Shown in pieces: positions 3,198 through 64,000 of a stretch of 64,000 nt of DNA. Source of the DNA: Paraspadella gotoi (lineage: Eukaryota > Animalia > Chaetognatha). The stretch is taken from contig CM119269.1 of the NCBI GenBank assembly GCA_051294375.1, positions 22,741,808-22,805,807 on the forward strand, in the 5' to 3' direction. The notes under the pieces are model-generated. The model worked only from the letters and a program-made list of their open reading frames with translations, did not search any database and was not told the origin of the DNA. Each line of letters opens with the position of its first letter. The first letter of the stretch is position 1. The translations under genes were made by a program, and so were the position numbers.

Positions 3198-6100
3198 TCA
3201 AGCGAAGACGTGCACCCTCTCCACCCCGACACCCAATTCCTCCAACGCGGATTCAGCGGCGACGTTGAATTCCGGAGATCCGCAGACGACGAAGGCGACG
3301 TCGTCGACGGAAGTGGGCGGGGCCGCGGTGGAACTGTCTGGCGCCGTGACGCGAATGGGCGTGACGGATTCGGGAGACGATGACGCGAGGCATTCGCGTA
3401 CGTGACGGGCCGACACGTGTCCGCGACGTCCGGTCCAAGAGGCGTCCGCGTCGCTGAGTATGTGGTCCGCGAGGAACCTGGACGGAAGTGATTGATGTTA
3501 TTTAAAAAGGCTTTGAAAAAGTATAATTAATGATGATGTACTAGTAATATTAATACACGTAAAGTGAAGAAGCATAAGCGCTGCTTATTAAGCTGATTAA
3601 GCAGTCTTGACTGCTGACTTTGGACAGGCTAGGATGGGTTAAGGTCTATCTATCCCTCTTACAAGTTTATTAAACAGCAGCACGATGCAAACTTTCACAG
3701 ACTAACTTCGAGAATGCTTGGCTTCCCTAATAATAAGACATACAGCAAGTGTCAAGAGTAAACAAAACTCCCAATATCAAAATAGACCGTGGGCGTAACT
3801 TACCTTTCCGGGTAAGCGTCGCAGAGTCGACTCCACGTCGAGTGGAGCAAAATGTCTTCCTCGGTTCGATTGAAGAAGATCAAGTGGAGAGATTCGGTGG
3901 AGCGGGATGGGGGAGGGGAAGAGGGGTTGAGGAGCTGTGGCGGGGGAGTGAGGTAAGTGGAGTGAATAAAAATTAATAAAGAGTAAGAAAAATTAAGAAT
4001 AGATGAAATTGTTGGGAAAATAGTCGATATGGAATTTGTAAATATTGAGGCCAAACTAGAGGCCAAAATTGGGCTTAAGAGAGAGGCCAAACGCACTTCA
4101 GTTACACAGTTTCGATGTTCTTAATAAAGTTTTAATATTTGATTTGAAAAAAACATCAAGCATTTCTTTGAAAATTTTTCGAAAGCCTAGATAAGTCCAA
4201 TTGCTTAAAACTACGTTCTCAAGTAGCTAGAACTTTTTAATTATCGCATCAATGATGCGCAAAGACAACTCATTTATTTATATCATGTGTCAACGAAACA
4301 AACTTATCCATCTATCAAGATATCTCTCTCTCTTCACTTCCCCCCCCCCTGCCCACGAACCTGACTAATAATCCCCGTCATGGGAGTGATTCCCGTCCCG
4401 GCCGCCAACAGACACACCCTCCGGCAACTTTCCGGAAACTCCTCCATCCCGGCGAAGGCGTTGCCATGCCAACCCGCGCCGATTTCCATCTCGTGGCCGG
4501 GAGATAAATCGGCGAGAGTTTTGGTGAATTCGCCGGAGGAGTAAGATTTGACGAGGAAGAGGAGACTGTTGTCGTTGTTGTCGTCGTTCTCGTCCTCTTC
4601 CAACAACAACGCCGCCTCCACGGGCGTGTACGGACGCGTCGAGACTTTCCCCTCATCCACTCGGCGCCGTAAGAAGACGTGAGCGCCGGGCGGCGGCGCT
4701 AGATGATGCAGCGCCGGGAGGCGGATTCGGAGGCGAAAACAGTTGTGGTTGAGGCGAGAGGAGGAAGCGATGGTGACGCGCCACGTCGCTTCCGGATCGA
4801 GAGAGGAAGCGAAGGATAGATGGCGCTCGGTTGGCGTGCCGAAGGATGTCCAATGGAGGCGGGGTTGAGATTTGGTGAGGAGGAGTTCCACTCTGTGGAA
4901 GGGGGGGGGGAAGTGAGGCTAAGTCATGACGATACTTCGGGACTGGAGAGAATGAGAAAAGGGGGTTGAAGAAAAAAAGCTTTGCGCATTTTCTCATCTA
5001 CAGAGAGAGAGACACAAAGAAGAGAAAGGAAGACAGAGATTTAATGAGATTTACCATTTTATTTCTACTTCTTTAAATCTATTGTCTTTTTCCTAAGTAT
5101 GAAAGTTAACCCAAAGAAATTCCTTCCTTCCTTCAATCTTTCACTACCTCATTTTCTCTCTCTCTCTNNNNNNNNNNCTCTCTCTTCAGTCTTCACCTGC
5201 ATCCTCCCGTCTTATGTCTAAACTCCAACCCCTCGTCGGCGTCCAATCCCGAGTGGAGGCGCCACTCGAGCGTCGCCACGCCGTCCTCCAGCAAAGCGTC
5301 GACGCGGAATCGATCGTCGACGGCGTCGTGGGAGATGACGAGGTCGCAGGGACGCAGCGCCGGCTGCAGGACGCCGCGGCGGGAGGGAGAGAGACGACGA
5401 GATGGAGACGGGCCTCGTTTTGGAACCAATCAGAGCGGAGGGGGGCGGAGGAGGTGGCGGAGGAGGCGGTGGAGGATGAGGTCGTGGCGGTGGAGGAACG
5501 CTGAAAGGGGGTGGGGGGGGGGGAGGGAGGGAGAGAGAGACGCGATAAGTGGCCCCTTGAGGCAGCCATGGAACGGGTCCTGGACTTGGAACGAGGCTTG
5601 GGGGTTTTCCACGCCCCCAAGGCGGTTTCAGGCCGTCCTCACGCTTCCCGCAGTGTAGGTATTATTGGGGATCGATCCCGGTACTTAAGGGTCATGAACT
5701 CAATGATCCACCGGATCATGCTTATAAGCAAGGTGAACCTATTGCAATGCCAGAGGACAGAGTGACAATTAGATAGTCAGTCACGGGAAAGGGTAAGAAA
5801 GTATAAAGAGGAACTATCCGCGCTTGACTTACCTTCGTGGAAAGCGAGTCGGGAGGAAAGAGAGACGAAACGCCGGAGGATGAGGTGACAGGTGGCGCCA
5901 CTGACGGAATTAACAAAAGATTGAAATAAACAAAAGACAAAACAAAAATTGAAACGGGGAAAAAAATTCTTTTTTCAATGATTAATTATAAATTTATGAA
6001 TGATAATAATCTTAGTAATATGTAAACTAGTAATAATTTAAATTAACCATAATTAAATGACATCCTACTTTTTTCGTCGACGTCTTCGTTTCTCGGCGTA

Positions 6101-40679: not shown

Positions 40680-48002
<7,323 letters not shown>

Positions 48003-50620: not shown

Positions 50621-52833
50621 ATGTCCTAAAAATTCGTTGACACAAAACAAATAAATTGTTTTCCTCTCTAAAAGTTAAATTATAAAATTAACCGATTTTA
50701 ACGGTTAACCGTTAAAAATATTAGTTTGAGAGAGAGAGAGAGAAAGAGAGAGAGAGGGTAAAAGTTTTCCAACAAAGTGGTGAGACAGAATGGTGGTCAG
50801 ATGTGAGGACAGGTTGAAGGTGAGGGCAGATTGATTACTGAATGTCAAATGCTGATAAAGGCTTGAAGTAAACAAGCCAAAACATGTCCAACTCTTAATT
50901 AAAAAATCGTTGTTACAAATTCAAAATACTTTGCTTTCTCTAAAATAAATTTTTAAAATTTTTTATTAAAGATTCAGATTTCTTATAAAAAGTTAGACCA
51001 AAAATATGAAACATGTTATCATAAATTTTTTTGTCTTCAGTGTCAAAATCTAAAAAAAAGGTCAAAATTTTTAACTTTTATAGGACTAAGTTTTTTTAAT
51101 TACATATACGGAGGCAGCAAAAAATATTGTTAACTCGCTTAATATTTTCATCACTCCACCCTATTATACACCTCTTGCAAAAAACCTATTACCAGTAACC
51201 CTTATCACAAAAATATTACTTACTAATTTCACACAAAAATTAACTTTCAGTGAACCTTATCATATCATTAAAAATTCTATTTGATTCTCATTATTTCATA
51301 ATACTCATAAAAATACCAAAAGAGATTTAAAAATGTGTAAAAAAAATGAGTAGTCCCTTTTCAGGAAAAATAATTTTTCCACATGGCTTTCATCACCAAA
51401 TATAATACTTAAAATCTGTTTTATTAATAATCTAAAATAAAAATAGATCAGATTGAAAACATTTTTATAACGAAAAAAATGTTTTAAAACTGTAAAAAAT
51501 ATCAGTAAGAGTAGTGAATTAAAACAATGAGAACTTCATATTAATCATTGTGGTAAAATAAGGGAAAAGTTATAAATCTTTTATATTAAAAATTAATGCA
51601 ATTTCTTAATAGTTTTTTCAAATACTTTTAAAAATCCACTGGATATTTAAAAGTATTTGAAAAATAAAGATTCTAACTTCAAAGTCATTATTTAACTGCA
51701 ATTACTTAGATCTGAAACAAAATAAATTTCAATAAATGACATAAAATTAAAGTTTATAATAATAATAATAATAATAATAAAAATATAAGCAAAATATCAC
51801 TTTAGTTAAAATATATATATAACAAAAAAATAAATTTAATAAAAAAAATATTTTTTTATTTATCTCTCTATCACTTTTGCATTCTCTTACTGTTAATATA
51901 TCAATTTAAACTTACACTCAAAGTAATTTGTACTAAGATCTAAATAAGTTTTATTAGTTGCTGACAGGCTATTAATCTTTAAAGAGGACACCCTAGAACA
52001 CCTCTTCCGGCCCGTTCGCCACAAAGATAGATTTCTACATTATAAAAGATTTTATAGATAAATAAAGTTCATGGAAAAAAGAACTTTTGTAAATTTGTTT
52101 TTAATTTTGAGTTCCGTTTGCAGGCAATAATTTGAGTAACTACTCAAAACAGTGAGAGAGCAGAAGAAAACTAACATATTTAAGCACTGGAATGACTAAA
52201 CCGATTTCACTAATTTTTAATAATAAATAAAATATAATTTTAACATACCCTATATATTAATTTTTTAATATTTATTTATAGATAAGAAAGGCTAAACATT
52301 TTTTTAAGATTTTTTTTATTTTTAATATCAGATTCAGGTAGGTTGCAAAAAGTTGTCTACACAAAGATTAATTTTTTACATTTAGATTATTAGATTTTTA
52401 TTATTTAGATAAGTGGGTGATAAATAAGAAAAACCGTTAAAAATTATCATTATCATTATCTTTCAATAATTTTGTTAGTTTTTTAAATTTTGACCAAGAA
52501 AACGTAAGAATTTTTAAAAGTTGTAATTATATTTTTTATTTAACTTTTAGTGCTCTATCAGAATCCATCAAAATAATTTAAAATTGATTAAAAAATATTT
52601 TATTATTATATAGTAATATATATGAGTTAACCAATTTTTAAATTCTTTATAACAACATTTAATGTAATTTTTTTTGCAAAATTTATGACTAAATATTTGG
52701 TCAAGACGACTAAATCAACTTTGCACACAGGCCACATTAAATATTTTTATTATAGTGGATGCCTAGTACAAGCGGGCATTTTGTATTTCTCAAGTAAAAA
52801 AAAGGCTAAGAGCTAAAAGAAATATTTTCTGCT

Positions 52834-55800
52834 TTATTTTTCTCGTTTTGTTGGTTTTCTTTTGAGTTTTTCCATCTTTCCGTCTTTCATCACAAGTACT
52901 TTATCGAAATCCCCAAGTTCATTGACTCTGTGTGAGATGACAAGAAGGGTTTGACCTTTGCAGTTTTTCCGAATTACCATCTGCAAAAGATGGTCAGTTC
53001 CAAGATCAATACTGGCTGTGGCTTCATCTAAACAGAGAATTTTTGGTCTACAACGCATAACTCGTACAAGACAAAGCAGTTGTTTTTGTCCCGCAGAGAA
53101 GGAGGCAGGGCAGAGTGGAGCATCAAGACCCCCGAGTGATGCTACAAGTTCCCACAATTGGTAGTGAATAAGCAGGTTGCGCAAGTCTTTATCTTCATTT
53201 TCCTTAGTTTTGTTGGCCTCAGTGGCTATTGATTCTGGCATCAAATTTTCTCGAATAGTTCCAATAAACAGTAATGGATTTTGTGGTACAATAGCAATCC
53301 ACTGCCGAAGAATGTGAAGAGGAATTTCTTTCACATCAATCCCATCTATAAGTATCCGTCCACTACTTAATGGGTGGGTGCGTAACATTGCTGCCAAAAG
53401 TGAACTCTTTCCACTGCCAGTACGGCCGCAAATTCCTATTGTTTCTCCAGCAGCAGCAGTGAATGATACATGATCCAATGCCATTCGTTTTCCAGAGGCA
53501 TAGGAAAAAGTAACGTTCTCAAATATGACAACCCCACTCAGTGGCCACAAATCATTAAATATTACAGGACGTGTCAACCTTAATGAGCAGATCTGAAATA
53601 ATGGAAAGTCAGAAACATCCTCCTCTACTGGAATTTTGCTATTATAGTCAATGATTCGTTCCAAGCTGATCATTTCTTTTTCCATCGCTGCAAAAGATGA
53701 GACAAAGCCGCAGAGCCGTCCTGGTACTGACAAGACATGTGAAAGAGCAAGACCAATGAATGCTGGTGATACTAATGAAACTGAAAAGTTTAAATTCTCA
53801 TAGATTGCCACCAATGAAGCTCCAAAGACAATGATAATACCAATGACTTTTAGGCTAAAATTAAAACAAAGAGTCACAATTAGCTGAGAATATTGTGCCC
53901 TGACGTTTTCATGAATTAAATTTAAGTTTTTCTTGACATATTGACTTTGCTTCCTCAGTGCGCGAATAGTTGTGGCACCCTCTAAAGATGATAGGTAATG
54001 GTCATAAATTGGAGAAAGTGTCAATGAAGCCCATCTCTTTATTTTTGGTGATGTTTGGCGGTAAAAGTTTTGAACATACAAGTAAATAGCACTGATGGGA
54101 AGTAACAGTGTCAGGAATAATGGAAGGCTATAGCAGGTAATAATAAGAACGCCAGCAAAACCAAATGCTTGGGCTAAAAAAATATTGAGATAATAAGGTA
54201 GAGAAACATCAATAGAATAAAGGTCTGAAGAAAATCTGTTCATCACAAAACCTGCTGGTATTCTCTCAAAAAATGTCAGTGGTGCTAAAAATAATCTCTC
54301 AGCAATATTATCGTGTAGAGATTGTGCCGCCACCAGTCCGCCATAGGCAAAGAGAAAGGCACGAATGAAAGTGATAATAATGTTTAGACCACTAATGATA
54401 CCATAAATAACAAGTAAGTATGCACTATGGCTTTGAATCAATGAGGATAAAGAAAATGGAAAATAAAAATTAGCCCCATTAAAAAAAAAATTCTCCATGC
54501 TGAAAGTTAAATTTTTCTGATCTGATACATTTGAGATGTGCTCTGCCCAAATGGAAAACCAAAAATCGGACCAACTTTTAGATAACTGCATTAGAAAAAG
54601 AACAACAAGTATAGATATTGAAAGTTTGAGACCGATGTTATTCCAGTAAGCCTTATAAACATGACTGCCAACCATCCTAGTTTCAGGTCTCTCCATGACT
54701 TCATCCTTTGCCACAAAACCAGGAGTGTTTACAAATTTTATAGCTTTTTCTTCATTCATAACCTTATTAATCACGAATTGATCTTCAACCACAAAATTTT
54801 TAAATTCTAATGGACGACCTTGCTTTTTGATTTTTCCATCTTTCATTATAATGACCCAATCTACAGCATATCCTGATTCTTGTTTTAAAAATATCTCTGC
54901 ACCATAATGAGAAGCCATGACAATAGTAGATGCCCCACATAATAGTTTTACAAAAACATTTTTCCATATTTCCTGTCTAATTTTTCTGTCCAAGGCAGAA
55001 AAAGGACAGTCCATAATATAAAAGGATTTTTTAGAATAGACAGCGCGTGCAAGGGCAAGTCGCTGTTTTTGTCCACTACTCAATAACATTCCTTTTTGAC
55101 CTACATAAGTTTTATTTCCCTGGGGAAAGGAGGCTACGTCCTCGGATAGGCAACAAGCTTGAAGCACAGTATTATACCAGGTCAAATCCATTACCTGCCC
55201 AAACAGCACATTTTCCTCAAATGTTCCAGGATAGATCCAGGCTTTCTGTGGCAGAAAACCAATGCCAGTATCTGGATTCCAGTTCCGGATTACATTGCCT
55301 CCCTCTTGCCTCATCTCACCAATGATTGCATGAAGCAAAGATGACTTCCCGGCACCTACTTTTCCAATAACTCCTACTAATGTTCCTGGAAAAACAGACA
55401 AATTAAGGCCATATAAGTAAAAACTGCTATTATCAAGCAGAGACCAAGAAAAGCTAGCATTACTCATCACCAAAAGTGGCAGGGCTTCATTTTGGGTTAT
55501 CATCTTTGAATTGTTTTTCTTATGACCACATCTGATATCTAACAGTCGCTGAACCCTATTTAATGAGACCCATGCATCCGCAATTCCATTAATGACCCAT
55601 GGCATCATGTTTAAAGGTTCAATGAGTATGTAAAACAGCGTTAGAGAAGTAAAGATCTTAGCGTTTGTTAATGTGGCTGATGAGTAAAAGTAGCAATAAG
55701 TGAAAAAAGATACGAGGGTGATCATCACGGGTGTTGTTGCCCTGAAAAATACAAATGCTGCATCTAAGTATTTGATTCCTTTTAGATTCTGCAATTCAGC

Positions 55801-56721
55801 TCTGCGATGATGTTCAACCCGGGAATGCAAGGCCAGCTCCAATCCAGACAACTTGATGGAATGGATTCCATCAAGGATTTCCGCCATTAGATTGATTCTC
55901 TTGTCCTTGTGGACCATCATAGCAGAGCTGAAAACAAGGATCTTATGACATAGAAACCTATTTACTGGTATGAAAAGGAGGGCCAGAAAAAAGCCAGTAA
56001 AAAAAGCAAGGTAGATTTGCTCATGGAGTAGATACAGTGCAATTGTCATCTGCAGCATCATTGCCCAGGTGCAATGAAATGTGTTGCAAAAATTGACAAT
56101 TCTGTCAACGTCGGTTGAAATTGCATTAACAATCTCCCCAGAACTGAGATCTGATTCAACAAAGGCTGACCTTGGCCAATTAAGGACTCGCTCATAGATA
56201 AGAGTCATCAGTGCCCCGCGGATCTGGAGCTGAATTTTGCCAACAATGAACTGAAATTGAGCATTAAGTATAGCACCTGCTGAGGTTGTCATGAGTAAAG
56301 CTAAGGCATAAAGGAAACCATAACATTTGGGCGAAGAGGTGTTTTCCATTAAGGCAATAAGTGCGTGGAGAATAATTGGTCCAGAAAAGGCAAGGACATC
56401 CACAATAAGCTTCAAGAATCCAACAAATAAATATGGTGTACCAAAAAGGTTTACAAGGGCTCGAAGGAGAGATGAGTGAACATTGAATCCCAGAATCTTG
56501 GTGTCTTTATTTTTGACTTCACTTTGCGCAAGTTCTTCTTGCAATTTACAGGATAAGCTGGAGATAGAAATGCTGGACGGAAGAGGATAGACATAGTTGT
56601 TTTGAAAGATTTGTTTTTGGGGAAGGAGAGGGTAGACCCAGCCAAAAATTTCATAGAAAATGCCGGCTTGAACTTCTGGTTGAAAGAGATCTTCATTATC
56701 CGCGTTGCTTGAATGACAAAG
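52834..56721 (-). CDS. ABCC10: ABCC10/MRP7-like transporter core, copy B (single ~3.9 kb exon, no TMD0 or upstream ATG of its own)
   Basis: Uninterrupted frame TMD1-NBD1 (GKVGAGKS, LSSGQKQR)-TMD2-NBD2 (GRTGSGKS, FSAGQ, LDEATA). The frame stays open 59 codons upstream of the track's TTG start, to acceptor TTGTTATCAG at 56722. Confidence 0.85.
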   Translation of the reverse strand, partial: LCHSSNADNEDLFQPEVQAGIFYEIFGWVYPLLPQKQIFQNNYVYPLPSSISISSLSCKLQEELAQSEVKNKDTKILGFNVHSSLLRALVNLFGTPYLFVGFLKLIVDVLAFSGPIILHALIALMENTSSPKCYGFLYALALLMTTSAGAILNAQFQFIVGKIQLQIRGALMTLIYERVLNWPRSAFVESDLSSGEIVNAISTDVDRIVNFCNTFHCTWAMMLQMTIALYLLHEQIYLAFFTGFFLALLFIPVNRFLCHKILVFSSAMMVHKDKRINLMAEILDGIHSIKLSGLELALHSRVEHHRRAELQNLKGIKYLDAAFVFFRATTPVMITLVSFFTYCYFYSSATLTNAKIFTSLTLFYILIEPLNMMPWVINGIADAWVSLNRVQRLLDIRCGHKKNNSKMITQNEALPLLVMSNASFSWSLLDNSSFYLYGLNLSVFPGTLVGVIGKVGAGKSSLLHAIIGEMRQEGGNVIRNWNPDTGIGFLPQKAWIYPGTFEENVLFGQVMDLTWYNTVLQACCLSEDVASFPQGNKTYVGQKGMLLSSGQKQRLALARAVYSKKSFYIMDCPFSALDRKIRQEIWKNVFVKLLCGASTIVMASHYGAEIFLKQESGYAVDWVIIMKDGKIKKQGRPLEFKNFVVEDQFVINKVMNEEKAIKFVNTPGFVAKDEVMERPETRMVGSHVYKAYWNNIGLKLSISILVVLFLMQLSKSWSDFWFSIWAEHISNVSDQKNLTFSMENFFFNGANFYFPFSLSSLIQSHSAYLLVIYGIISGLNIIITFIRAFLFAYGGLVAAQSLHDNIAERLFLAPLTFFERIPAGFVMNRFSSDLYSIDVSLPYYLNIFLAQAFGFAGVLIITCYSLPLFLTLLLPISAIYLYVQNFYRQTSPKIKRWASLTLSPIYDHYLSSLEGATTIRALRKQSQYVKKNLNLIHENVRAQYSQLIVTLCFNFSLKVIGIIIVFGASLVAIYENLNFSVSLVSPAFIGLALSHVLSVPGRLCGFVSSFAAMEKEMISLERIIDYNSKIPVEEDVSDFPLFQICSLRLTRPVIFNDLWPLSGVVIFENVTFSYASGKRMALDHVSFTAAAGETIGICGRTGSGKSSLLAAMLRTHPLSSGRILIDGIDVKEIPLHILRQWIAIVPQNPLLFIGTIRENLMPESIATEANKTKENEDKDLRNLLIHYQLWELVASLGGLDAPLCPASFSAGQKQLLCLVRVMRCRPKILCLDEATASIDLGTDHLLQMVIRKNCKGQTLLVISHRVNELGDFDKVLVMKDGKMEKLKRKPTKREK

Positions 56722-57585
56722 CTGATAACAATATTGGATTAAGATGAGGATAAATCAGCAAATCTACACAAAAATATAATCATTCTAATTTTTTTATCTT
56801 TAATATATTAATTTTGAAACTTTTTAATACAAATTATTAAACTATGACTATGAGATGTATGTATTTTAAAAAAAGATTTAAAATTTTTGATAATTCACTT
56901 TTAATTCTCTTAATTGAACCAAGGCTGGGCAGCTTGATTTTTATGTTAGAGCTTTCATAAGTATATCATTCTCTTCATTTTTTTAGGGCTTTTTGAAAAT
57001 ATTAATATTATTAATATCTTAATAAATACTTTGTTTAAAAAAGTGTTAAAAGTTGAAAAGGAAATTTTGAATTTAAAAACAGTGAGTTGGAAAATGAAAC
57101 CCGATTTTAAAAGCCAACTTTCTCCACTCATTGTCAAGGCATGTCTTAACTGATCAATATGAAATTTGATCACATAAATGACTTTAATATTTTCTACTCA
57201 ACTAATTTTTAAAATTAATTAAATAACCACTGGTTTGAAAAGGACAGCGTTTTTTTACCGGCGCTTGTAAAATTGTCACCATGTAGTCCAAAGAGTGTCA
57301 AAACAAAATCGTTTACTTTTATAAGACACAAGAAATATCATTTGGTTTTGTTAGAAAGCTGCAATATTGTGACAATAACAAATTAGAAACATTTTTTTAT
57401 TCACTGTATCCATAAACAAGTATGAAAAAAATTTACTTATCAATCAGTTGTAATAATGAAATAATATTCGAAAATTTGTTCAAAGTCCTGATTACAATAA
57501 AAATTTTGAAAGAGAATAAAAACATTTAATTTTTATAAAAAATTATTGTACATATTATTGTACAATGGTAAAGTTTAAAAAGTTT

Positions 57586-60500
57586 TTATATTGAATTTTT
57601 GAATGTCTTTCCAAACGACTCAATTTTTCCATCCTTCATGACAAGCATTTTGTCAAAATTCTTGAAATTGTCATCTCTGTGAGATATACAGAGCAGAGTC
57701 CGTCCTTTACAATTGTTACGGATCAACATCTGCAAGAGTTGATCAGTTTTGACATCAACATTGGCAGTGGCTTCGTCCAAACAGAGAATTTTTGGGTGGC
57801 AACGCAGGGCACGGGCAAGACCTAGCAGTTGTTTTTGTCCTGCAGAAAAAGATGTAGGACTAAGTGGGGCATCAAGTCCACCAAGTGAAGTCACAAGATC
57901 CCATAGTTGGCAACGGAGGAGAAGATCGCGCAATGTTTCGTCACCTTCATCTTCATTGTATTCTGTTACCATTGAGTCAGGAATCAGGTTCTCTCGGATG
58001 CTGCCAGTAAATAGTAATGGATCTTGGGGGACGATAGCTATACGTCGGCGAAGAATGTGGATGGGAATTACCCGGACATCAACGCCGTCCACAAGAATTT
58101 GCCCACTGATTATGGGGTGTATACGTAGCAGTGCCGCTAGTAATGAACTCTTTCCACTACCCGTGCGTCCACAGACCCCAATGGTTTCTCCTCCAGCTGT
58201 CGCAAAGGAGACGCCATCTAATGCCATCCGAGTTCCCGAGTCATAGGAAAGTGAGACATCCTTAAAGACAATTCCACCACTAGTTGGCCACACAGAATCT
58301 AAGGTCACTGGGAGTATTGATAACAAAGAGCAATGATTAGATAATGCGCTGGCTGAAATAATATCTTCTTCAGGAATTTTATTTATATAGTCAACTACAC
58401 GTTCCACGCTGATCATTTCTTTTTCTGTCTCTGTGAAAGAAAAAATAAGACCAGTGAGTCTTTCATGAACCGAAAGTACATATGAGATAGAAAGGCCAAC
58501 AATGGCAGGCGATATCATAGAAGCTGAAAAGAAGTGATGCTCCAAAATTGCAGCCAATGATGCGCCAAAGACTATCACCACACCAATAATTTTTAAGTTA
58601 AAGCTTAGCCACTGAGCCACAATTAGTTGGGAGTATTGAGCCCTAATATTTTGATTGACCAACTCAATAGTTTTGCTGATGAATTGATCTTGCTCCCCCA
58701 TTGCTTTAATAATTGTTGCGCCCTCTAATGATTCTGTGAAGTGGGCATAAATTGGGGAAAGGGTCACTGATGCAAGTCTTTTTACTTCGCGTGATGTGTG
58801 GCGATAAAAGTTTTGGATGCGGATGTACACAACACCAATGGGAAGTAACAGTATCAGAAACAAAGGAAGACTGTAGCTGACAAGAATGATTACACCTGCC
58901 AGACCAAAGATCTGCGCAAGAAAAATGTTAAGAATGTAGGGTAGAGAAATGTCAATTGAATACAAGTCGGATGAGAACCTGTTTAACACACGACCTGCTG
59001 GTGTAGACTCAAAGAATGTCAATGGCGCTTTAAAAAACTGCCTTGCCAATTTGTCATGAAGAGAGCGAGCTGCTTCTACACCTCCATAGGCAAAGAGAAA
59101 AGCACGTGCAACAGTAATAACAAGATTTAAAGCACTGATAATCCCGTAAATAAGTAATAGAAGTGACACACTTTCTGTCGTTGTAGATAAAGATGTTAGA
59201 GTTGGTGCATCGTAAGAAATCAAAATGAAAGAACTGAGGACAAGATTTGGTATTTCTTTGCTTGTATTTGTTTCATTTTTATCTGGATCAGTGGAGTTTT
59301 TTGAATAATGTTGTGCCCAATAGGACAACCACCAATCGCATAAATTTCTTGACAACTGCATTAAAAAGAGGGTAACAAGGATAGAGAAAGCAAGGTTGCG
59401 ACCAATTGCAAACCAGTAGGATCTGTAAACTTGCTTAGCAACCCTTCCAGACTCACGAGCCTCTGCATCTTGTAACTTTTCCCAGCTTGTACCTTGTTCA
59501 GTTTTTTTAGCTCTTTGTTGAGTGTCTAATTTTTCAGTTTGCTGATCATTGGTTAACACAAAATCTAGAAGTGTAGACGGGGGACCTTGACTCTCAATTT
59601 GTCCATCTTTCATGATGACCACCCAGTCAGCAACATAACCCAACTCTTGCATTTTAAATAAATCAGCTCCATAGTGAGAAGCTACTATAATGGTGGATGA
59701 ACCTTTTAGTAAGTTCAAAAAAACATTTCTCCACACTTCCTCGCGTACTCTCCTATCCAGTGCTGAAAATGGGCAGTCCATAATATAAAAATTTTTTTTA
59801 GCATAGATTGCACGTGCGAGTGCAAGTCGCTGCTTTTGACCTCCACTTAAAGACAATCCTTTCTCTCCTACATTGGTCTTATCTCTCTGTGGAAAAAAGG
59901 CTACATCCTCAGAAAGGCAACAGGCATTGAGAACAGTGTGATACCAGGATGTGTCCATCGGCTTCCCAAACAGTACATTTTCTTCAATCGTACCCTGTTG
60001 TATCCAGGCTTGCTGCGGTAAAAAAGCAATACCATCATTGTAATTCCAATTTCGCTGGACCTCACCACACTCCTGCCACATCTCTCCAATAATTGCATGG
60101 AGCAATGAAGTCTTTCCTGCACCAACTTTGCCTACAACACCAACCAATGTCTTTGCTGGTACAGTCAAAGTCATGCCACGTAGATGAAAACTGTTTTCAT
60201 TCAGTGACCAAGAAAAGTCAGCATTATTCATAATAATGAGTGGCTTTAACTCCATTGTTATTACTGATGTTTTTCTATCCTGATCAGTCTTAAGATTTAC
60301 AAGTTGTTGGACTCGCTTCAATGAGACCCATGCATTGACAAGTCCATTAATCACCCAAGGTATCATGTTTAAGGGCTCAATAAGCATGTTAAAGAGGGAA
60401 AGTGATGTAAAAATCTTAGCTGCCGTCAGTGTAGAATATGAATAGATGTAGCAATAAGTTAGAAATGACAACAGTGCAATGATCACCGGTGTCGATGCCC

Positions 60501-63116
60501 TAAAGATGACGCATGCTGCATCTAAGTATTTAATTCTCTTCAGATTTTCCACTTCTGCTTTGCGATGGTGACAAATTTTGGCATTGAATGCGGCCTCAAA
60601 TGCGGAAAACTTTATTGCACGGACCCCATCAAGGATTTCTGACATAAGTTTGATTCTCTTGTCTTTGTGCGCCATCATTGCAGAGCTGAAGACTAGGATC
60701 TTGTCACACAACACTTTGTTGATTGGCAAGACAAGAAGAGCAAATGCAAGGCCAGCAAGAAAAGCAAGTGAAATTTGTTTGTGGAGAAGATAAAGGGCAA
60801 TAGAAATCTGGAGTGGCATAGACCAAGCGGAGTGAAAAAAGTTGCAAAAGTTTATGATCCTTTCTACATCTGTTGACATGGCATTGACAATTTCACCTGT
60901 ACTGAGATATGACATGGACAAGGTTGCTATTGACCAACCAAGAGCTTGATCATAGATAAAGCTAACAAGTGCTGCACGCATTCGAAGCCTAATCTTGCCT
61001 ACTGCAAGCTGAAACTGGGCATTAATAAGTGTCACTGTTGCTGTCGTTGTAAGCAGCGCCAAAGCATAACCATAGCCACGCCACTTTGGCGCTGACTTAT
61101 CCTCCATGAACTCAATTAAAGAATGCAATACAACTGGCCCCACAAAAGAAACAACGTCAATAAAAAGTTTTAAAAAGCCAATTGAAAAGTAGAGTCTACC
61201 AAAACAATGAACTAATGCCCTAAAAAGAGAAGTATGAACAACGGTTGTTGAAGCATCTTTGGTAACGTTTTTTGGCGAGAGGCCGGCACGCAGATCACGC
61301 ATTAAGCAAGTAACAGATATGCTTGATGGAAGAGTGTATAGATCGGAGTTTTCAGAAATGCGTCCATTAGCACCATCGCGAAGAAGCGGGTAGACCCAGC
61401 CAAAACAGATCCTAGAAAATACACTGGTATTGTCCTCTGGTTGAATTAAAGATGGACGTTGGTCGACAATGCTCAAAACATCCTCGCTTATGTTTGAGGG
61501 AACTTCTTCACTAATAAGCGTATTGAATTCACTCAAGTGGTTTATGCATCGACGCTGGTAACAAAATTTTTTTTAAGATTAGATTGAAACACTAGTATTA
61601 ATTTTGATTATTAGTTTTATTTTTTAATTTTTTAACCCACTGGGGAGTCTCTTTTACAGTGGCAGTAACATACAGAAGTAACTTAAATAAAGTATTTTTA
61701 AATGATAATTATAAAATGCTGTTTTGGATGGCATTATATCTTAGTTCTAAAAAAGGGCACAAAATTAATAAATATATTTTTAAAACTGCTGGTATATGTA
61801 TAAATTTCCAATTGATTTAAACTATTTACATTTTAAATTTATATAAGTTTTGCTATACCATAAACTCACCCTTGACTTCTTTATGCGCACAACAACAAAG
61901 GCGATAATCAATGATGTGATGTAGATGAGATGAAAGACACAGACAATGATGTCCATGATAGATTTGGCAAGCGCCAGCGGCGTGGCAATCGTGGCATCAT
62001 GTGGCAATGGTGAAGTGGAGAGGGAATGCGAGATTAAATAAATCACAGCTCGGCGCGCTAAAAGATAAAATTGGTATGAAATTGGTACAACCAATATAAA
62101 AATTATCCATTCATTTAATAAATACGCTATCTTGCCCCTGACTTTGGACAGGCTTTAGTGGTTTAAGGCCTCCATCACTCTTACAAGATAATGATATAGC
62201 AAGTCCCTGCAAGCTTTCAATCAAGACTCTCTCACAGTCTCGTTTAATCACTCCCAGAGTACCCGGCTTCCCTATCAATGAAGTCGTATGATATTTCAAA
62301 GAATGTTAGAATAATGTCTATCAGGAAATTCATCATTCAAATCAACCTATCATAAAAATCAGCCACTCATTAAAATCAATCCAATCGCGTAAATCACTCA
62401 TTAAAATCTAACCAATAATTAATATCTGCAAACTTTCAAATCAATCAACCAAACCTTTTTATCCACCACAATCACTGTCAAATCACCATCACAATTACTG
62501 TCGAATCACCATCACAATCATTGTCGAATCACAATCATTGTCGAATCACCATCACAATCAAATCAAATCCAATCAAATTAACTGAACACTAATTGAGCCA
62601 ATCATTCTAATCTATTAATATTTTACAAACACATACATACCACTCACCTTCCAAAGCCTGAGGAATCAAGACAAATAGATATGCGATTGTCATTGCTACG
62701 TCTGAAGCCATTTTGATTCCAGCATCACTGTCATGGCGACGGCGGCGGAACAGCGCCACGCCGTGGAGGAGCCACGAAGCCGCCACAACGAGAAAGACAG
62801 CGAGGTCGACCGTCGAGGGAAATCCCTGCGCGTGCTTGTAAAATGCCGGTAGAAAAAAGTGGATTATTGAAAGGACAAAAAGACAAATGCAGCAAAGAAA
62901 ACGGATGAAAAAGCTTCTTGAAGCGGATCGTCCACTCGCGTCTCCAGCCACGCCTTTAAGGGCGCCAACAAAGTAGGCGGAGACGCCGGCGAGAATTGCG
63001 TGGGCCGGGAGGAAGAAGGCGACTTTGGTGAAGCAGACGTTGAAGGAAGATGTCGAAGAGTTCCAGACGATGAGGGGAGATGGTTCATCGCAGAGGGATG
63101 AGAGGAAGGACGGCAT
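57586..63116 (-). CDS. ABCC10: ABCC10/MRP7-like ABC transporter, copy A (3 exons)
   Basis: Exons 63116-62648 and 62057-61870 (hydrophobic TMD0), then 61554-57586. Motifs GEIVNAMSTDVERIINFCNFFHSAWSMPLQI, KYLDAACV, LSGGQKQRLALARA, FLFAYGG, GRVLNRFSSDLYSID, FTETEKEMISVER. Confidence 0.93.
62074..62307 (-). repeat. Copy of the ~230-bp dispersed repeat
   Basis: Reverse complement of 40880-41112. Confidence 0.85.
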
Positions 63117-63500: not shown

Positions 63501-63544
63501 TGGTGGCAACTGTAGGATTTGAACCCACGCCTCTGAAGAGACTG
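63501..63544 (-). pseudogene. Retroposed 3' half of tRNA-Leu with CCA end
   Basis: Minus strand CAGTCTCTTCAGAGGCGTGGGTTCAAATCCTACAGTTGCCA-CCA resembles the animal tRNA-Leu(AAG/UAG) variable arm, T arm and acceptor strand; flanked by a 19-bp direct repeat. Confidence 0.8.
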
Positions 63545-64000
63545 TCTACTCACTTAAATGATTTATTAAAATGACTCAGTAATACGTCAGAACAAATTTA
63601 GCATTTAAAGATAGAAAACAGATTGACAGACTGACCTACTTTTATGGAGTTAATCCGCAACAAGCGACAAATAATTTGTTGTTGTCGTTTTGATAATCTT
63701 TTGTTAAAATTAAGTATCGATATTAAATATACTATATTAAATATCGTGTATATTTACATTCAATATATTAAATTCTTTTATATTAATAATCGGTTAGTAT
63801 TTTTAAAATAATATTTGACTGTTTTTAGAATTCGATATAAATATGTACAAATAATTTTTAAACAATATAGTTTAATAAACCTGATATAATGTAATAACCT
63901 ACGTATACAAAATATAATCACCACATATATAAACCTTATACAAAACCGTATGGTTTTATGGTTACAAAAATAAAAATATTTTTCTCTCTATTTTTTAAAA

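Follow-up and report, generated by a model that had tools for sequence, protein, structure and literature searches.

A candidate ABCC10 gene of the arrow worm Paraspadella gotoi in which one TMD0 may be joined to either of two whole-core last exons

A stretch of 64,000 nucleotides (nt) from the chaetognath Paraspadella gotoi (contig CM119269.1, positions 22,741,808 to 22,805,807; hereafter the window) carries on its minus strand two exons encoding the N-terminal domain (TMD0) of an ABCC10-like transporter, followed by two tandem core exons, A and B (Table 1). We consider it probable that these exons form one ABCC10 gene with two whole-core last exons, the shared TMD0 being joined to either core by last-exon choice.

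Exons 1 and 2 sum to 657 nt, or 219 codons, and therefore end in phase 0. That these exons encode TMD0 and end in a phase-0 donor (AGG/GTGAGT) at 61870 had been proposed in a first-pass annotation made from the letters alone, and both coordinates and phase were confirmed. Core A (1322 amino acids (aa) plus a stop codon, preceded by TTGTTACCAG) and core B (1295 aa plus a stop codon, preceded by TTGTTATCAG) are intronless, and each contains Pfam domains PF00664 and PF00005 twice, in agreement with the two tandem TMD1-NBD1-TMD2-NBD2 exons suggested to start at 61554 and 56721. The AT-rich spacer between them, put at about 860 bp, measures 864 nt, with 23% GC. An in-frame TGA at 56757-56755 lies 34 nt 5' of the B acceptor, and, as was also pointed out, no ATG follows until inside TMD1: the first Met is residue 125 in B and residue 85 in A. 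A and B are tandem homologous terminal exons, each with its own stop codon and putative poly(A) signals (57530/57401 and 52751-52540). No third core or core remnant was found by tblastn within the 64-kb window. With 760 of 1282 aligned residues identical (59%) and a nucleotide identity of 66%, the possibility that A and B are an assembly duplicate of one gene is ruled out. The GC content at third codon positions is 0.35-0.36 in the cores versus 0.58 in exons 1-2, and the 4-kb intronless exons lie amid many-exon genes; this composition and structure may reflect a swap, before the duplication, of the 3' part of the gene for a processed cDNA.

Judging from match scores, A and B appear closer to ABCC10 than to other ABCC subfamilies. 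The best matches of A were ABCC10/MRP7 proteins of molluscs, lancelets, cnidarians and vertebrates (up to 1077 bits, ~41% identity), and most of the named rows among the 120 matches listed were ABCC10/MRP7. MRP1 scored 691 bits, with lower values for ABCC2, 3, 4, 5, 8, 9 and CFTR. A quick tree placed A and B as sisters against 22 animal ABCC10s (Shimodaira-Hasegawa-like approximate likelihood ratio test 100, with a long-branch warning and no non-ABCC10 outgroup), which suggests that their duplication is old but lineage-specific. A hidden Markov model (HMM) built from the N-termini of 26 ABCC10 homologs was run against all six frames of the window. It matched exons 1 and 2 with an E value of 5e-24 (4e-22 for exon 1 alone), and no second TMD0 was detected, the next best segment in the window having an E value of 0.09, which bears out an earlier claim to this effect. 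No close relative (> about 50% identity) was found across the protein, representative-set and metagenome searches. The best identities were 41-45% for A against proteins of near length, 47% against shorter proteins, and 48-50% for B residues 1-400 against 1.84 billion representatives, one protein (P0124) reaching 51% to A over 308 aa. None of 735 candidates matched exon 1 among longer proteins, the exact look-up of relatives returned 0 of 5, and the metagenome scan revealed at least 4 loci with 25-31% identity.

The acceptors of A and B, first described as near-identical, are homologous. In the last 40 nt before the acceptors, 27 of 39 aligned positions are identical, and both sites are in phase 0, the phase of the exon 2 donor. 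This similarity was reached by none of 500 shuffles and by none of 14 putative neighbour-gene acceptors (best 26 vs 38; 16 anchors tried, two of which gave no site); with acceptor-like 40-mers of the window, 1 of 374 comparisons reached it. Its z value fell from 5.4 at 40 nt to 0.6 at 315 nt, the similarity fading within 200-300 nt. This fading homology suggests that the copied unit took in the end of the intron, i.e., a duplication at the DNA level, and that both acceptors were probably kept by continued selection. The positions 56800-56640 contain nine AGs, only three of which are in phase 0, and the two more upstream of these three hit stop codons. The proposal that duplication occurred at the exon level is inseparable from a whole-gene duplication followed by loss of the TMD0 exons of B.

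The part of B preceding its first ATG bears the marks of coding selection. Over codons 1-124 (120 aligned to A), the proportion of nonsynonymous differences (pN) was 0.36 versus 0.64 for synonymous differences (pS; Fisher p 1e-5), with p 0.002 for the lasso part and p 1e-6 for the first-helix part, and the identities at the three codon positions were 0.56, 0.73 and 0.42. B retains 22 and A 25 of the 39 homolog-conserved columns of this region. AlphaFold, supplied with a 71-row alignment, gave a mean predicted local distance difference test (pLDDT) score of 86 for B residues 1-700 (blocks of 72-96 over residues 51-130 and 62-70 over residues 11-50), the single-sequence fold having a pLDDT of 37. 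In the model, residues 9-12 of B align to MRP1 203-206, the start of the lasso, and Met125 aligns to about MRP1 353, past the first core helix, so that the pre-ATG part is predicted to form the lasso and the first TMD1 helix. In MRP1, the lasso is described in a review as essential and TMD0 as dispensable (PMC6961416), and TMD0 and L0 of Ycf1p are described as acting in trafficking and partner binding (bioRxiv 2021.01.29.428621). Given the selection on these 124 codons and their predicted fold, B must have been translated from an upstream exon. The ATGs at 56696 and 56654, out of frame, within the first 70 nt of B and 5' of Met125, fit initiation 5' of the acceptor.

The proposed comparison of nonsynonymous and synonymous rates between the two copies gave a dN/dS of 0.19 (dN 0.29, dS about 1.4-1.5). 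In a neutral drift simulation with substitutions only, B was stop-free in 121 of 1000 runs at 0.01 changes per site and in 13 of 1000 runs at 0.02. Since so few runs stay open in comparison with the synonymous distance between A and B, B cannot have been dead for long. The earlier view that a frame open for ~1295 codons suggests selection is upheld by these two results, and B as an old pseudogene is ruled out.

Donor sites provide a further line of evidence. The exon 2 donor reached a score of 5.9 and the other real donor 8.0, as against 1.6 for the best spacer site, and no GTRAG donor is present in the spacer. The spacer contains five phase-0 leaders of the ATG..GT type, the best of which (1.6) was equalled by 215 of 1000 shuffles. 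The interval 56760-57580, in which a leader exon of B would have spoken against the first-pass annotation, therefore holds no convincing one, and the exon 2 donor, the only good donor nearby, is the simplest source of the start of B. A protein joined in this way would have 41 linker residues between late helix 5 and the lasso Trp, versus 44 in a mammalian ABCC10, which makes the join of exon 2 to B plausible.

Three sequencing runs matched the window; none is on record as RNA, and one (X1), consisting of contigs only, was guessed to be RNA. X1 contains 0.86 of 1049 window words, and X2 and X3 next to none, with one short record each. The modelled share was 0.85-0.86 if the run is spliced RNA and 0.91-0.93 if it is DNA that has lost its repeats (standard error 0.011), so the observed value leans toward RNA under this rough model with its own assumptions. 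A contig of 4468 nt is identical to 52500-56967, with 0 differences; B is assembled correctly over this range and, if X1 is RNA, it is transcribed. The matching X1 contigs leave core A and exons 1-2 uncovered, a gap not used as evidence, given that the filter omits records. A second X1 record, of 5193 nt, aligns to 54986-55218 and 57962-58099. Its NBD1 is ~77% like that of B (53 differences in 233 nt vs 55 between A and B), and its NBD2 has 17 and 22 differences in 70 nt to the two cores, vs 18 between A and B. It is a third ABCC10-like sequence, not in the window and about equidistant from A and B, colinear with an intronless core, and its length allows a TMD0 of its own. It could come from another paralog or from another organism in the sample.

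Several observations weigh against one gene with alternative last exons. The X1 contig over B runs unspliced for 246 nt 5' of the acceptor, with no break or loose end, and neither the junction from 61870 to 56721 nor that from 61870 to 61554 is among the 15 of 24 joints listed for the X1 contigs. If X1 is RNA, there is unspliced RNA across the B acceptor, and the spliced form may be a minor one or may not occur. Given a short leader, B could also work without TMD0, because its start aligns with those of natural TMD0-less ABCCs (residue 1 of the model with MRP4 residue 5, residue 11 with CFTR residue 1), its linker is the shortest of 28 rows and TMD0 is dispensable in MRP1. Among 193 columns invariant in 26 homologs, 34 are lost in B and 17 in A, which could be decay. 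The best pairing between intron 2 and the spacer, sought as a docking/selector duplex, was equalled by 22 of 40 shuffles (11 of 40 near acceptor B), and the searches for relatives yielded no close one in which conservation of the head-A-B layout could be seen. However, the missing spliced form of B in X1 is no refutation, since the model needs a read-through precursor and contigs drop minor paths: contig assembly prunes short low-depth links beside a high-depth path. Alternative last exons, as first proposed, have a stronger indirect case than the letters alone could show, made up of the selection before the ATG, the homologous in-phase acceptor and the lack of a convincing leader, but the junction from exon 2 to B is not among the joints listed.

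B might instead be a separate TMD0-less "short" ABCC, with a small ATG leader exon spliced in phase 0 to 56721 and driven by a spacer promoter, which the repeat found there may have provided. The position at which B begins, that of MRP4 and CFTR, the loss of 25 linker residues, the dispensability of TMD0 in MRP1 (PMC6961416) and the five possible spacer leaders fit this explanation, and the selection on codons 1-124 fits it equally. However, the best candidate (from ATG 57282 to donor 57259, with a TATA-like box before it at 57323) ends in a weak donor, CCG/GTAAAA, at chance level, and the joints listed include none of this sort. Promoter, start and donor would all have to be new, although a strong in-phase donor sits 5.1 kb upstream, and we regard this origin of B as unlikely.

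A full paralog that lost its own TMD0 exons very recently, or had them dropped by the assembly at the spacer repeat, would leave B as an untranslated, undecayed read-through remnant. The conserved acceptor and the old selection would then need no alternative splicing to explain them, the contig covering B runs unspliced through the acceptor, the repeat is a possible deletion site and many conserved residues are gone from B. Against this, the loss would have to be younger than ~0.01-0.02 neutral changes per site, a small slice of the synonymous distance of 1.4-1.5, and the spacer contains neither a TMD0 remnant nor an N gap. Moreover, provided that X1 is RNA, use of a private upstream exon would leave the contig with a loose end at 56721, which it lacks. 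We find such a recent loss distinctly unlikely.

In P. gotoi, nearly half of the genes are reported to be trans-spliced and 18% to lie in operons (PMC12460157), so B may be suspected of being a downstream operon gene, with 56721 as a spliced-leader acceptor and a start at Met125 or at a non-AUG codon; read-through RNA across the B acceptor would fit. However, the chaetognath leaders tabulated in PMC2481426 (Table 3) are all without an ATG, so a leader added at 56721 would supply no start. Of the ATGs that follow the acceptor, the first two are out of frame and the first in-frame one is codon 125; a start there would remove the lasso and the core helix that are under selection. Operon processing of this kind appears improbable to us, and explanations other than those considered here seem very improbable.

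Under the reading that we favour, of one gene with two alternative last exons, a tandem duplication at the DNA level would have taken in both the core exon and the end of intron 2. Isoform A (1541 aa) would arise by splicing of exon 2 to 61554 and end at the poly(A) signals of A. Isoform B (1514 aa) would arise from a read-through transcript by splicing of exon 2 to 56721, A being skipped within a 5.1-kb intron. The choice would be made by alternative splicing and polyadenylation.

The two cores were taken to be interchangeable; they are not equivalent, B being the faster-evolving, altered copy. In comparison with Lottia, B has 115 unique changes and A 65 (p 2e-4), and three other outgroups gave the same direction. 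A retains all the ATPase motifs (Walker A and B, Q-loop, signature, NBD2 Glu and His). B carries G549S, giving an LSSGQ signature in NBD1, and E542Q, both at positions invariant in 26 of 26 homologs, together with the invariant-residue losses R892P and W952C. Its two Walker A motifs are retained, as are, in NBD2, the LDEA and SHR motifs with the glutamate and histidine. The NBD1 signature is presumed to complete the hydrolysing site, and we take E542, R892 and W952 to correspond to positions of MRP1 in coupling or in the pore. Relative to the 26 homologs, A and B have the same odd changes in NBD1, with MDCP for DDP in the Walker B region and ASHY at the H-loop. The linker of B is 25 residues shorter and has lost the [DE]xxxL[LI] motif kept in A (EFNTLI), a motif present in 13 of the 26 ABCC10 homologs versus 2.6 expected. 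We assume, from the consensus, that this is an endosomal/lysosomal sorting signal; no dileucine-type motif described for ABCC10 was found in the literature searched, which leaves most subscription papers outside it.

These differences suggest that B likely differs in sorting and transport, A perhaps being a housekeeping pump and B a specialised, differently sorted one, although relaxed selection may also account for the changes in B. For isoform A, the predicted role is export as in the ancestral ABCC10. Isoform B is expected to be minor or tissue-restricted, to be sorted differently for want of the acidic dileucine-type motif, and to have an altered substrate preference or a slower ATP turnover, as a consequence of LSSGQ and the other losses.

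Table 1. Features of the candidate ABCC10 gene (window coordinates, listed in gene order)
Feature	Positions	Strand	Details
Exon 1, coding part (start codon and first part of TMD0)	63116-62648	minus	469 nt, 156 codons + 1 nt; donor AAG/GTGAGT, phase 1
Intron 1 (low-complexity tandem stretch and high-copy repeat 62075-62307)	62647-62058	minus	
Exon 2 (end of TMD0, last helix)	62057-61870	minus	188 nt; phase-0 donor AGG/GTGAGT; predicted shared donor
Intron 2	61869-61555	minus	315 nt; ends in acceptor A with branch-point-like CTAAT
Core exon A (linker with acidic dileucine-type motif EFNTLI, lasso, TMD1-NBD1-TMD2-NBD2, stop)	61554-57586	minus	
Spacer (3' end of A, ATTAAA at 57530, AATAAA at 57401, multi-copy repeat, acceptor B with branch-point-like CTCAT)	57585-56722	minus	
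Core exon B (shortened linker without dileucine-type motif, lasso, TMD1-NBD1-TMD2-NBD2, stop)	56721-52834	minus	
Likely 3' untranslated region of B	52833-52500	minus	AATAAA at 52751, 52604 and 52540; within the X1 contig that also spans B

The repeat in intron 1 (62075-62307, 233 nt) has a 96% identical copy at 40881-41113 and several partial copies in the window, and is very deep in X1. It contains a weak match to the type-P5 twister ribozyme at 62137-62179 on the gene sense strand (26 bits vs a cut-off of 37.6, E 0.062), and the fold of 62120-62200 was no better than those of shuffles (z -0.9). Another repeat, at ~56900-57370, fills half of the A-B spacer and is deep in X1, with many variant contigs; no second copy lies within the window. 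About 400 nt 5' of the start codon, the minus strand at 63501-63554 resembles the 3' half of a tRNA, with a T-loop-like GGTTCAAATCC and a CCA end; ARAGORN called no tRNA there, and it is possibly a remnant of a short interspersed nuclear element. The only N run of the window is at 5168-5177 (10 nt). Positions 3000-40000 hold dense many-exon genes, mostly on the minus strand, which we named by eye from their translations as presumably cytochrome b5 reductase 4-like, pyrophosphatase (plus strand), tRNA 2'-phosphotransferase-like, WDR61-like, INO80B-like, C2H2 zinc finger and PI3K regulatory subunit genes. Their layout would fit an operon.

If the junction of exon 2 to B is true, a whole transporter core of 1300 residues can duplicate and diverge as an exon, with the promoter and accessory domain of its parent. 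The boundary between gene duplication and alternative splicing would be blurred, at ~5x the largest catalogued human C-terminal swap, and the locus would be a natural experiment on TMD0 and its linker, with the same TMD0 before two cores, one with and one without the acidic dileucine-type motif. For annotation, start-less 3' cassettes of this kind would be misread as truncated genes or pseudogenes. Trans-splicing and operons are described as common in chaetognaths, along with a surge in tandem duplication (PMC12460157); the main text of that paper does not use the terms "ABC" or "alternative splicing". We suggest, tentatively and as a possibility short of probable, that the locus contains two functionally distinct pumps as paralogs in one gene, a conserved ABCC10 and a fast sister with altered ATPase site, pore residues and sorting signal, which share a single promoter and a single TMD0 through last-exon choice. 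No larger alternatively swapped exon of this kind was then among those we found, and the locus would be one case of a lineage-wide tendency, likely in arrow worms, to duplicate genes as start-less 3' cassettes, which gene counts would miss or mis-split.

The layout was initially presented as the reverse of that of UGT1A and the protocadherins. This comparison does not hold, as the closest systems belong to the common class of duplicated alternative last exons, MASP1/3 among them. The layout is thus known, and what is new is the scale, ~1300 of 1514-1541 residues. In the literature searched, with the limits given above, we found no ABC transporter described as having alternative exons for its whole core. 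The transcription factor genes lola and mod(mdg4) of Drosophila consist of a constant 5' part and many short start-less 3' cassettes, partly joined in trans. The P. gotoi locus shares with them the constant 5' part and start-less 3' cassettes, but has two very long cassettes. In the ABCC family, the SUR2A/B swap concerns a short tail. Duplicated exons are reported in human ABCC9, Drosophila mrp (eight interchangeable exons) and C. elegans mrp-1 (PMC9741552), so that ABCC transporters have repeatedly been diversified via alternatively spliced duplicated exons; in these genes one local region is swapped, never the whole core as predicted here. ABCC10/MRP7 is described as a "long" MRP with the domain order TMD0-L0-TMD1-NBD1-TMD2-NBD2 (PMC3777468). 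The locus has this order in common with it, that of B hinging on the predicted splice for its TMD0, but its core lies on one intronless exon, in two copies, one of which has an LSSGQ signature in NBD1.

Substitutions derived from C-terminal tandem exon duplications are given as 77 of 236 events in human (PMC8373072, PMC9741552), with homologous regions of at most just over 250 residues (PMC8373072). The locus resembles these in its common 5' exons, its duplicated homologous last exons and a predicted choice by alternative polyadenylation and splicing, but here the splice would swap ~1300 residues, 86% of the protein, with all the catalytic and substrate-binding parts. In MASP1/3, one N-terminal module is joined to either of two complete catalytic domains, one of them single-exon, giving two enzymes with different tissue use (PMC7432537). 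The same splicing of a common N-terminal module to one of two complete units is predicted at the locus. However, MASP1/3 swaps one protease domain and its common part is larger, whereas in P. gotoi the common part would be a 219-residue accessory domain and the part swapped a four-domain transporter.

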